The notes below the pieces were generated by a model. That model worked only from the letters and a program-made list of their open reading frames with translations. It was not told where the DNA came from and did not search any database. DNA of 64,000 nucleotides, taken from the NCBI GenBank assembly GCA_963821525.1, contig CAWGED010000004.1:352001-416000 (forward strand), written 5' to 3'. Both the position numbers and the translations under genes were made by a program. Origin of the DNA: an uncultured Gemmatimonadales bacterium (lineage in GTDB: Bacteria; Gemmatimonadota; Gemmatimonadetes; Gemmatimonadales; GWC2-71-9). Of the stretch, positions 8,162 to 11,459 are shown one piece after another (the stretch's first letter is position 1; each line of letters opens with the position of its first letter).

Positions 8162-8773
8162 ATGACGACCCCGCAAACCCTGACCATCCGCAGCTTCACC
8201 GACCGGGCTGAAGCGTTGGCGCACTTTGTCTTACGCGCCGGTGAAGCCCCCCGGATTCTGGCGTTCGACGATGCCGTTGGCTGTCCGCTGGACATCGCCC
8301 TGGCGGCGCTCGAATGGACCAAGGTGGTGGGAATCCTCAAGGACGACGACACCGTGCACGCGGCCCGGCTCACCAACGAGACCGCGGCGGCGGTGATCGA
8401 ACGGAAGGGGGAGAACGGGCGCCAATTCGTGTACCTTGGCCCCCGACTCGACGCGCCGCCGATGGACGTATTCGAAGGCGCGGTCCTTTTCGACGAACCG
8501 GGGGTAAAGGCCGTCGAGTTCAGCCAGCGGGCCCACGCGCTGGCTCATTTTCTTCGGGCAACGGCGGGCGTCGGTGCCTTGCTGGCGCTGCTCGGACGAC
8601 GGGCTCCGGAAATCCGGCACCTCCGGCGCTGGCTGGGTCCAATCCTGGCAGAGCTCGACCAGCCGCGCGCCCTCGTTGCGGGCTGGTTCGCCGCCAGCTC
8701 GGCTGGCTGTCTGCTCGCGCCGTGTGATACCGAGGCCAACTTTCGTTACATCGAAGTCGGAATGGAATCGTGA
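8162..8773 (+). CDS. hypothetical protein with internal duplication
   Basis: 203-aa ORF; FTDRAEALAHF and FSQRAHALAHF. Confidence 0.75.
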   Translation: MTTPQTLTIRSFTDRAEALAHFVLRAGEAPRILAFDDAVGCPLDIALAALEWTKVVGILKDDDTVHAARLTNETAAAVIERKGENGRQFVYLGPRLDAPPMDVFEGAVLFDEPGVKAVEFSQRAHALAHFLRATAGVGALLALLGRRAPEIRHLRRWLGPILAELDQPRALVAGWFAASSAGCLLAPCDTEANFRYIEVGMES

Positions 8774-9334
8774 CCGGTAAATCTCTCTTCTTCGCCCTGC
8801 TGCTTCTGCCTTCCGCAGCCCACGCCCAGCAGGTCATTACTCCCAACACGCGCGCACCGCTTTCTCCCGAGAAGGCCAAGATTCACACTGCTCTCGTGAC
8901 TCTGCGTGACTCGCTGCTGGCGGTCCAAAGCGCCGGAGGGCGGCTGGAACGCGATCTCCGCAGCAGCTCCGACGCGGTGCTTCGTTCCCGGGCGCGGACC
9001 ATCAGTGCGGCCTGCGCGAGCTCGAGCCGGGCAGCCGATTCGGCCCAGCAAACGATCTCTGCCAGCCCTGAGCCGGCCAAGGACCCCAAGAAGACACGCC
9101 AGGCATTGCTGGCCTCCCTCAAGGACCTTCGCGGTTCCCTCGACAAGTGCACGGCGGACTTCACCTCATACATCGACCCCGCCAACGCTGAAGATCTGCG
9201 TGGATACGGAGTCAGCCGGTCCAGCAAGACGGACGATGCCATCCAGCGCTACGGCGTCCCGCTTACAGCAGTACTTGGGCTTACTGGACATCGTTATCGA
9301 GCCTGAACTCGGCGCTCGACCCTCCACACCGTAA
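8770..9334 (+). CDS. hypothetical exported helical protein (3' end may be frameshifted)
   Basis: Signal peptide ...AAHA-QQ; overlaps upstream stop (GTGA). Confidence 0.65.
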
Positions 9335-9351
9335 TCTTCGGGTGTTGAACC

Positions 9352-9485
9352 TGTGGATTCACATCTCCACATCGTGTGGAGATGCTCGTTACTTGCCTTG
9401 CAGGACGTGAGTTAGTAATCCACAAATCCTCCACTCGAAGTTGTCTAACCCGAATAAAATCAGGCACTTGCGGGGTTCTTCCACG
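9352..9485. promoter_or_regulatory. cluster of DnaA-box-like 9-mers and an IHF-consensus site
   Basis: TGTGGATTC 9352, ATCTCCACA 9363, TGTGGAGAT 9375, TAATCCACA 9416; AATCAGGCACTTG 9458-9470 fits WATCARNNNNTTR. Confidence 0.4.
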
Positions 9486-9603
9486 TCGGTATCTTGGAGA
9501 GAACCGCCAACTGCAGCGCGTCGGAACCCCCTGTTCTGAAAGCGGAGGCTGGCGAGTCTGAGCGGGATATCAAGGTAGACCGTCTACGTACAAGGGCTCG
9601 GAC

Positions 9604-9895
9604 GGTCAAAGACCTTGGTGATCGCCCCGGTTCAGGCAGATGAAGCCAGTCGCGCGCTTCATCCACCCCGATCTAGCGCCTCGGGATGCAGTGCGAAGGG
9701 TCGGTCCGCGACCCGATCCGACTCGCAGCGCTCGCGCAGATGAACCAGGTGGGACGGCCATCCGGCCTGGGGATCCAAGCCAAGGCCCCACCCCAGCCCT
9801 ACCGATCGGCGGAACAGCCAACCGGCGGCAGGTGGGAGAAGAACGGCAGCGCAAGCTCCGGCCTCGGGTAGTCAGCGTGTGAAACGGTCACCAAG
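9604..9895 (+). ncRNA. candidate unannotated structured RNA (~290 nt)
   Basis: 11-bp closing helix 9614-9624/9885-9895, several nested helices, complementary hairpin loops, no credible ORF; strand inferred from terminator. Confidence 0.6.
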
Positions 9896-9926
9896 CCCCC
9901 GTGCCTGGTGGCCGTTTCGTATTTCT
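9881..9926 (+). terminator. hairpin terminator (possibly bidirectional)
   Basis: GAAACGGTCACCA / TGGTGGCCGTTTC 13-bp stem followed by GTATTTCT. Confidence 0.6.
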
Positions 9927-9927
9927 G

Positions 9928-10920
9928 TCACTGGGTGGGTTCGGTTCCCCAGTCGCTCGAACCGCGATAGACCCGCCGTCGGTCCAGCTCCCAGATCCCC
10001 CGACTGCTCACACTTCCCCCCTCCGGAAAATTGGCCGGGGTATTCAACGCGTCCGCCATGGAACGGGCTTTCGCACTGGCGTTATCCGCATAGTGAATGA
10101 CTTCGGCCTCGAGTGTCATGGGATGCACCGGGGCGCCGAACTCGAGCTTGCCATGGTGAGACAGGATCAGATGGTGCAGCACCGTACGCTCTTCGGCTGA
10201 ACAGGGTGGTGAGCTCTGCTGTTCCAGCTTCCGGTCGAGCATGAGAGCGCCGAGTACGATGTGCCCCATCAGCGATCCGGCGGTGGTCATCTCGAAGCAT
10301 CCATTCCACCGGTAGCTCTCGGTCTTCCCGATGTCGTGGAGCAGGATGCCGGCGATGATCAGGTCGATGTCGCCGCCGCAAACCTCGGCGATCCGTCTCC
10401 CGATTGCGGCCACTTCGCAGGTGTGCTTGAGCAGCCCTCCCAGCTCGGCGTGATGTCCTGAGAGACTGGCGGGACACTCCTGGAAGCGGCTGCGAAAGCC
10501 GAGATCGTCATAGAAGAGGGCCAAGGTCTGTCGGAGGCGGGGACCACGGACCTGGTTCCGCCAATCATCAAGCAGAGCCCACCAGGGAGTGACCTCTCCG
10601 ATGGACGGCATGAGGTCCCTCCACTCGATTCTGTCTGGTGCGATCGGTTCGATCGATGTGACCTGGAGCTGCTTCCGGTCGCGCCAAATGCTGATCTGGC
10701 CGGCGACGGCGACCGGATCCCCTCGCTTGAGCCTCAGAATCTGGTCGCTGAGGGGAGGCCAGAATGGCGCGGTTTGGATTCTCCCCCTTCGGTTTCCCAG
10801 GGTAAGCAAGGTGTGGGGGGAGGTTCCGGCCCGGATCTCGACTTCCTGTATCAGAAAGACATCCGAGAGCTCGGTGCCTGGGGGGAGCGCGTGCAGCGGA
10901 GAGAGGGAACGGGTCAGGTC
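9928..10920 (-). CDS. HD-domain 3'-5' exoribonuclease, YhaM/Cbf1 family (start uncertain)
   Basis: OB-fold-like N-terminus; HHAELGGLLKHT, LLHDIGK, ILSHHGKLEFGAP...TLEA...YAD; frame stays open upstream of 10809. Confidence 0.85.
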   Translation of the reverse strand, partial: DLTRSLSPLHALPPGTELSDVFLIQEVEIRAGTSPHTLLTLGNRRGRIQTAPFWPPLSDQILRLKRGDPVAVAGQISIWRDRKQLQVTSIEPIAPDRIEWRDLMPSIGEVTPWWALLDDWRNQVRGPRLRQTLALFYDDLGFRSRFQECPASLSGHHAELGGLLKHTCEVAAIGRRIAEVCGGDIDLIIAGILLHDIGKTESYRWNGCFEMTTAGSLMGHIVLGALMLDRKLEQQSSPPCSAEERTVLHHLILSHHGKLEFGAPVHPMTLEAEVIHYADNASAKARSMADALNTPANFPEGGSVSSRGIWELDRRRVYRGSSDWGTEPTQ

Positions 10921-11066
10921 GAGACCTTCGGGGGCTGGGTAACGATCCGGGAGAGTGGTGTAATTTCGGTCGGGTCGGCTCGTCTCCCTTATAGCCAGGG
11001 GTTCGGTTGACCCGCTGGCGCGGGGAGACCCGCAAGATCATCGTCTCCGTAAATGGGATTCGACCG

Positions 11067-11459
11067 ATGAAGACGAGTCATGTTCTGGTGCTCGACCGGA
11101 ACCAGGCGCGTCGCGACGCTTTAGTCGGGGCGCTGAAGGTTGAGGGGCATGTGCCGGTGGTGGTGGAGAGCGGGGCGGATGCCGCCCGCGCCCTCGCGGT
11201 ACCAGGGCTAGATCTCCTGGTGATTGACTTGGCGATTCCGGACCTCGCCCTGGGGACGCTCCGGGCGGCGCTGGGACCCGAGCAATCGGCCGAGCCCGAG
11301 CCTCTGGAAGCGGTGGAACGACAGCACATCGCGCAGGCCCTCAAGTTCACTGGCGGCAACAAGAGACGTACGGCCCACCTGCTGGGTATCGCCCGCTCCA
11401 CCCTCCTCGCCAAAGTACGGAAATACCGGCTCGACGCGGGGCCCGAGACCCCGGAGTAG
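11067..11459 (+). CDS. receiver-like domain fused to Fis-type HTH
   Basis: LDLLVIDL; LEAVERQHIAQALKFTGGNKRRTAHLLGIARSTL. Confidence 0.8.
   Translation: MKTSHVLVLDRNQARRDALVGALKVEGHVPVVVESGADAARALAVPGLDLLVIDLAIPDLALGTLRAALGPEQSAEPEPLEAVERQHIAQALKFTGGNKRRTAHLLGIARSTLLAKVRKYRLDAGPETPE

Follow-up and report, generated by a model that had tools for sequence, protein, structure and literature searches.

A gene for a folded non-coding RNA of about 420 bases, with a doubly knotted core, lies on the + strand at about positions 9505-9926 of the window, i.e. the whole 64,000-nucleotide stretch of Gemmatimonadales DNA that was analysed. It represents a previously uncatalogued structured RNA family, the fold of which is well supported and the mechanism of which is a proposal. 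Bacteria have few large, highly structured RNAs that are retained almost universally, and the ones with an understood role perform core jobs in the cell. Within a soil family, 71 of the 72 genomes sampled retain the present RNA, which also occurs in RNA libraries of many studies. Its natural variants delimit the working part to a core of about 95 nt, a size within reach of probing, activity assays and cryo-EM, and the RNA brings with it a named candidate partner and a candidate regulator. Moreover, soil metatranscriptome pipelines would gain a missing annotation.

An initial annotation, made from the letters of the window, had proposed a structured RNA of about 290 nt. The RNA is real, yet it is longer and folded otherwise than in that reading. 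The segment 9604-9926 is more stable than its shuffles (z = -2.18, none of 100 equalling it), and the region was recovered by DNA search in 41 of 61 genomes; 26 of 30 loci were aligned for the study of the boundaries. The extent of about 9505-9926, which adds about 100 nt at the 5' end, follows from a conserved promoter box and a covarying terminator. The conserved upstream box and a sigma-70-type promoter (9446-9495, + strand) form invariant or near-invariant columns across the 26 loci, with the -35 element at 9468-73 separated by a 16-nt spacer from the -10 element at 9490-95. The promoter box has a single match within the window and none in 100 shuffles, and the combined -35/-10 pattern occurs once genome-wide. 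At the other end, an intrinsic terminator hairpin with a U-rich tail (9880-9926, + strand) is 85% paired, and 14 of the 17 pairs of the hairpin proper (9880-9919) covary, in keeping with the terminator recognised initially. Generic promoter and terminator scans called neither end of the RNA.

The RNA is flanked on one side by a + strand gene that stops at 9306 and on the other by a convergent YhaM-like gene whose end lies at 9928, and its promoter and terminator stay conserved while the flanking genes vary between loci. The initial view of a stand-alone RNA is borne out by these conserved signals, and the rejection of a riboswitch leader by a downstream gene that is usually convergent and by the lack of a conserved alternative to the terminator. 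A protein-coding reading was discarded, as the length differences break the frame and none of the frames stays open across all 25 rows of the alignment.

Five TCCACA/TGTGGA hexamers, which we take to be DnaA-box-like, are found upstream of the promoter at 9323-9424, and two of these boxes are conserved in the 26-locus alignment. The cluster is one of six genome-wide, of which one is a simple repeat. The other clusters of this genome (G000; C4:233978-234217, C5:631135-631361, C12:73531-73677 and C13:7234-7380) lie at the end of dnaA, at one further site and, on two contigs, before a sigma-70-family-like gene, a duplicated gene that presumably encodes a sigma factor. From sequence, the clusters may possibly mark a DnaA-type regulon. 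A replication origin at the locus itself was considered and rejected, the skew minimum of the contig being at 212,910 and dnaA at about 234,000, versus 361,500 for the locus.

Judging by the aligned homologues, the helices of the RNA are supported by covariation on independent alignments, and they fall into an optional leader, a core and an optional 3' domain, all on the + strand. The leader comprises hairpin L1 (9505-9554), for which the support consists of predicted folds (single-sequence folds of six homologues and the consensus fold), and helix L2 (9556-9637, with strands 9556-76/9612-37), which is 84% paired and has 26 covarying pairs out of 30, with 0 of 500 shuffles as good; this shuffle test, here and for the core, is inflated by kinship, and slid controls were only 30-52% paired throughout. 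The core (9639-9732, about 95 nt) is built of three hairpins, P2 (9639-63), P3 (9664-88) and P4/P4b (9692-9727), tied by two pseudoknots: PK1, a loop-loop kissing interaction (9649-54/9707-12), and PK2, in which the P3 loop pairs with the strand just 3' of P4 (9675-79/9728-32). The six core helices are 96-100% paired in the 26 close homologues. A second alignment of 40 further, more divergent matches, which retains four weak chance hits and was fitted to the nested helices and not to the pseudoknots, is 90-99% paired, with 30 of 39 pairs covarying and none of 500 shuffles equal to it. Furthermore, a blind mutual-information scan ranked a PK1 pair sixth and also listed a PK2 pair.

Conservation is concentrated in the core, which holds 34 of the 35 positions that are at least 95% conserved among 98 distinct sequences. 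Most of its invariant bases are paired, which suggests that the exact geometry of its surface matters; the invariant unpaired ones are 9689, 9705, 9706, 9720 and 9721. The 3' multi-junction domain (9733-9879) is closed by P5 (9733-41/9871-79) and contains P6 (9745-54/9761-70), P7 (9780-85/9862-67), P8 (9787-9836) and P9 (9844-60), joined by conserved, purine-rich junctions; it is 90% paired over 51 sequences, and 37 of its 43 pairs covary. The unpublished genomes G018, G097 and G131 are excluded from all these structural alignments. They enter some of the counts given here (G018 the region search of 61 genomes, the 6S survey of 61 and the 68 primary loci; G097 the range counts for the core, the 3' domain and the 203-aa protein, the 68 primary loci and the RF00029 search; G131 the group II intron comparisons, including the profile of nine D5-D6 sequences), and no conclusion depends on them.

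All the complementarities listed by the initial annotation are present in the sequence, and the search for homologues and covariation that it recommended produced homologues in which both the core and the 3' domain covary. In the 26 sequences, the hairpin at 9639-46/9656-63 has 99.5% of cells paired, with 5 of 8 pairs covarying, that at 9664-71/9681-88 is 98% paired and three pairs longer than first seen, and the arms 9692-96/9723-27 and 9698-9704/9713-19 are 98% and 96% paired. The kissing loop, i.e. PK1, is 100% paired in the same set, and 2 of its 6 pairs covary among the 40 divergent matches. Of the proposed GNRA hairpin at 9848-57 the stem endures (90% paired) and the GNRA loop is not kept. 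Four other helices gave way on comparison: 9629-34/9741-46 (65% paired in the 26 sequences), 9748-53/9787-92 (72%), 9798-9803/9831-36 (63%) and the supposed closing helix of the whole RNA, 9614-24/9885-95 (60% and 45% paired in homologues). Their strands have other, covarying partners, the 5' strand of the closing helix belonging to L2. The switch imagined between this closing helix and the terminator after 3' trimming falls with it, since the helix is not conserved and is computed as unfavourable: its pairing probability is 0.00 in the full RNA, where it would cost 18 kcal/mol, and 0.008 after trimming at 9895, and it reaches 0.89 only when the leader is removed too, as in coordinates starting at 9604. 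The earlier reading did not contain the 5' leader of about 100 nt, the promoter, PK2 or P5.

Parts of 9300-10100 are held by 24 sequencing runs from 19 studies, of which 16 are recorded as RNA; none of the 24 holds half of the sequence words of that stretch. Contigs of four runs, chosen for holding this stretch, were mapped on 8200-11200. In line with the metatranscriptome check proposed initially, contigs from RNA libraries concentrate on 9511-9895 in three of the four mapped runs. In runs X2 and X6 every covered bin falls on the RNA, and in X4 depth, added up over many relatives, reaches 1.4e5 on the core versus 1-4 on the upstream gene; X3 covers coding genes too and may contain DNA. Contigs from two studies start at 9511, and in X2 three near-identical contigs tile 9511-9895 at a depth of 19-33. 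Because the contigs carry neither strand nor level and the runs were preselected, this evidence is supportive of presence in RNA rather than proof, and the strand and level of expression are those that we infer. Processing to a core-only form was considered and dropped, as the peak in depth at the core is a total over many relatives and the near-identical contigs are level. A circular RNA was likewise discarded, a single X2 contig in one run joining 9895 to 9632. That chimeric contig connects 9740-9895 to 9632-9661 through an 8-letter insert, and it is explained as a template switch because the eight letters are the reverse complement of 9672-79.

In the host family the core covariance model matches all 72 genomes, with E <= 1e-9 for 71 of them and only 0.008 for G025, and in the sister family it matches both; weak matches were obtained in 1 of 31 genomes of a third family of the order and in 2 of 44 from the remainder of the phylum. 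Under strict filters it matched none of a sample of 150 genomes centred on an actinomycete and none of 150 centred on a proteobacterium. In a metagenome pattern scan, 65 of 80 loci among the matches listed are genuine, and none of the five viral pattern matches among those listed scored with the core model. Mobile carriage was discarded on the basis of these viral hits and of plasmid and phage comparisons that gave no meaningful match. Weak distant core hits (E 4e-4 to 8e-3) were also set aside, their knots being absent or the hits not recovered. The 3' domain model matches 55 of the 72 host-family genomes. Distant homologues of this domain were considered in two family f7 genomes and rejected: the weak hits differ at roughly every third base, as judged by eye, and are therefore probably coding. 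In several genera the RNA consists of the core only, or of leader and core, with the same promoter, terminator and neighbours (L085-L093). The core is the indispensable part, as it is the sole portion retained in every variant seen, and the periphery is dispensable. Two or three strong copies occur in 18 of the 72 genomes, the extra copies having other promoters and unrelated neighbours.

A gene for a conserved 203-aa protein, the candidate partner (8162-8773, + strand), adjoins the RNA at 67 of the 68 primary loci. In metagenomes, among the matches listed, it accompanies the RNA in 37 of the 39 loci that carry the promoter box and extend 1.1 kb or more upstream. In the sister family it lies on the other side of the RNA and in the opposite direction. 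Its range over the same 150 genomes (71/72 in the host family, 2/2 in the sister family, 1/31 in the third family at E 1e-3 and 0/44 in the rest of the phylum) is nearly that of the RNA, a coincidence largely due to kinship and linkage. Genomes G025 and G058 are without both RNA and gene; G025 is also without the YhaM neighbour, so that its absence may reflect an assembly gap. In the 99% complete G021 the RNA is present and no match to the protein was found, and the gene is beside none of the 18 extra RNA copies.

With a pI of 5.5 and a net charge of -5, the 203-aa protein is acidic, and it belongs to no Pfam or NCBIfam family. Among 1.84 billion representatives it has 126 relatives, and the source names of its homologues are Gemmatimonadales or Gemmatimonadota. 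The predicted model is confident (pLDDT 90) and depicts a soluble-looking alpha/beta protein, for which structure searches returned no clear fold match and no resemblance to an RNA-binding fold. Against the sliding clamp (PCNA/DnaN) the best Foldseek E was 0.006 and the PCNA TM at most 0.27, and the best structure comparison gave Z = 4.0 with an rmsd of 4.3 over 102 residues. As to function, its Atlas neighbours are mutually inconsistent, and a PDB sequence search yielded nothing usable. The protein shows a two-fold internal repeat, residues 12-23 resembling 120-131; although its net charge is negative, it has a conserved Arg-rich stretch near 147-157. A functional connection between the RNA and this protein is conceivable, with a chance somewhat short of even.

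Between this gene and the RNA lies a 178-aa spacer gene (8770-9306, + strand), present in 13 of 68 primary loci and assigned to no Pfam or NCBIfam family; its product is probably secreted, to judge by eye from the N-terminus, and the gene is outside the RNA system. On the other side, the convergent gene (9928-10809, - strand) encodes a YhaM-like HD-domain exoribonuclease, with a Pfam HD match and an NCBIfam YhaM match at E = 9e-32, below the family cut-off. It is beside the RNA in 36 of 68 primary loci, frequent but not fixed, and it is also found in two of three tested genomes of a family without the RNA. A Fis-type gene is near the RNA in 36 of 68 primary loci as well.

The RNA family and its fold are new and match no catalogued family, while the broad type, an orphan structured RNA such as raiA or OLE, is already known. 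The Rfam comparison recommended by the initial annotation, run with Rfam 15 on the whole window, gave no match at the gathering threshold; on 9200-10100 the only hit was ASpks, at 17.9 bits versus a threshold of 52, and in ten homologous loci ncS035 alone hit the RNA, scoring 23 bits versus 79. RNase P, SRP and tmRNA, which that annotation had already discounted, are encoded above cut-off elsewhere in this 81%-complete genome. OLE RNA is a large orphan structured RNA with an adjacent gene for the Oap protein. The present RNA resembles it in size, orphan status and tight linkage to a protein gene, but it has no Rfam match and its neighbour is a soluble-looking, acidic alpha/beta protein, a candidate binder by linkage. 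The 6S (RF00013) and Ms1 RNAs are abundant and stand alone, with their own promoter and terminator, and both bind RNA polymerase; 6S RNA is a long rod with a central bubble. The RNA described here likewise stands alone between its own promoter and terminator; unlike 6S it has no long rod with a central bubble, and its indispensable part is a pseudoknotted core. The 6S and Ms1 models had no hit at the locus. 6S RNA was found neither there nor in any of 61 genomes of the order (the present one among them), with or without the RNA, and the 6S of the Gemmatimonadales is missing or highly divergent. Nothing indicates that the new RNA replaces it, because relatives without the RNA likewise show no 6S.

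The raiA motif RNA, or ModT (RF03072), is described as a stand-alone, abundant RNA of about 200 nt with unknown function, reported from Bacillota and Actinomycetota, with two pseudoknots and a conserved core to which optional arms are added, its minimal variants being near 113 nt (PMC10861870; PMC12968392). Its P1 is described as pairing the 5' and 3' ends, and one linker as forming both pseudoknots (PMC12968392). The two pseudoknots, the conserved core and the minimal variants recur here; in contrast to raiA, there is no conserved 5'-3' closing helix and the knots are loop-loop and loop-tail. The raiA model, in a search whose controls included no genome known to hold raiA, had no hit at the locus at E <= 10, and its best genome-wide value (E = 3.3) fell on another contig. 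A permuted raiA was also considered and rejected, as what we take to be a raiA look-alike motif near 9600-9614 is not conserved and the raiA model gave no match. No description of the RNA was found in the literature searched, a scope outside which most subscription papers fall. The string Gemmatimonad* is absent from the main text of PMC10861870 and PMC12968392, and it is unnamed in the main texts of bioRxiv 10.64898/2026.10.21.760802 and 10.64898/2026.09.22.753630, whose supplements could list the RNA among their clusters.

The preferred reading, held at about an even chance, is that of a trans-acting, protein-binding regulatory RNA, with a partner that is a candidate only. A separately transcribed, stable RNA of about 420 nt would act in trans; its double-pseudoknot core would fold into a compact protein-binding module and sequester or scaffold the bound protein, with leader and 3' domain serving as optional add-ons. 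Trans action fits because core-only variants retain promoter and terminator, and because the extra copies are self-promoted among unrelated neighbours. The retention of the core in 71 of 72 family genomes is a further point for the preferred reading. The adjacent 203-aa protein would be the first candidate partner and RNA polymerase the second. The gene of the former stays adjacent even where side and direction switch, against which stand the acidity of the protein and the absence of the gene in G021 and near the 18 extra copies. The level of the RNA probably tracks the growth or replication state, because the promoter hexamer recurs at dnaA and before the sigma-70-family gene. A bolder and rather doubtful extension would see in it a new class of RNP, in which a double-pseudoknot module of about 95 nt and of new fold, abundant in soil and under DnaA-type control, would be bound by a protein of new fold and perform an essential regulatory or catalytic job in a major, uncultured soil lineage without detectable 6S.

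Other functions of the core have to be weighed against this one. It is unlikely that the core forms a new class of ribozyme, with either itself or some other molecule as substrate and with the periphery only as a stabiliser. Small ribozymes often show such nested architecture, and the core is a compact double pseudoknot in which few invariant bases, the five named above, are unpaired. The near-identical X2 contigs, however, tile leader, core and 3' domain at a similar depth of 19-33, so that they show no dominant cut; none of the ribozyme families matches, and self-cutting of a core-only transcript would give no obvious product. Loop-loop pseudoknots and few invariant junction bases are also typical of aptamers, and some of the extra copies have genes for RtcB, beta-CASP nuclease, PRPP synthetase and flavodoxin around them. 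It is quite unlikely, all the same, that the core binds a small molecule or ion as a trans-acting sensor or sink, an aptamer without expression platform, given that the downstream gene or pathway is inconsistent and the terminator helix is constitutive, with no conserved competitor. Both the ribozyme and the ligand-binder are kept as candidates because the core is compact, with five invariant unpaired bases. The ribozyme idea has also been raised for raiA RNA (PMC10861870).

Descent from a known RNA and action in cis fare worse. The pair of pseudoknots, the conserved core and the minimal variants shared with raiA (PMC10861870; PMC12968392) would suit a distant relative of raiA, 6S or Ms1 missed by the Rfam models; this is improbable, since none of the three models had a hit (for raiA at E <= 10), the topology differs from that of raiA, and the core model found nothing in the 150 genomes centred on an actinomycete. 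P8-P9 loosely resemble D5-D6 of group II introns, including circularly permuted ones (PMC8637638), and could derive from domains 5-6 of a domesticated, catalytically dead intron. In an unfiltered search of 19 intron loci and four other loci, five of the top 14 weak hits of the 3' domain model (E 0.055-0.38) fell on D5-D6 on the right strand, four of them through the P8-P9 part of the model. Those four nevertheless come from closely related introns. A sequence profile of nine related D5-D6 reached a best E of 0.69, with 2 of its 41 top hits in the 3' domain, and a covariance model of the same nine reached 0.27, its top hits lying off P8-P9. Furthermore, P8 in the alignments is without the intact catalytic triad or bulge of D5, P8-P9 are dispensable, the core model matched no intron domain, no Rfam intron family was found at the locus and RF00029 had no match in G000 either, all of which leaves an intron remnant very improbable. 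A role in cis, in which the RNA would be a regulatory leader or would serve the convergent YhaM-like gene as an antisense or terminator element, with a switch, could draw on the 36 of 68 primary loci in which that gene follows and on the 11-bp competing helix of this genome. Homologues do not conserve that helix, its formation is unfavourable, RNA and gene do not overlap, and in the DNA examined a YhaM-like neighbour is missing from 32 of the 68 primary loci and from every one of the 18 extra copies, so that a cis element is barely credible.

Group II introns of the sample were observed in two genomes of family f2 just after the tmRNA gene and near a tRNA gene (L160:1210-1990; L154:1355-2020), and a subgroup related to these introns has a long D6. 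A selenocysteine tRNA was called in G000 at C5:1056970-1057067.

The extra copies of the RNA fall partly into classes. One (L071, L073, L078, L079, L080, L082, L083, L084) has a different upstream motif, and its neighbours are RtcB, beta-CASP nuclease, PRPP synthetase, flavodoxin, radical SAM or helix-hairpin-helix genes; these sites are perhaps stress islands. A second class, in genus g23 (L066, L068-L070, L072, L074-L077), has a leader of 26-30 nt and is served by a sigma-70-type promoter of its own, with inverted hexamer boxes. The extra copy of G014 (L081:3064-3188) is a core without 3' domain or terminator-like tail in the DNA examined, and it is possibly decayed. In G166, a partial second 3' domain (L161:3542-3619) lies 6.5 kb downstream of the extra copy, adjoining RtcB-linked genes.
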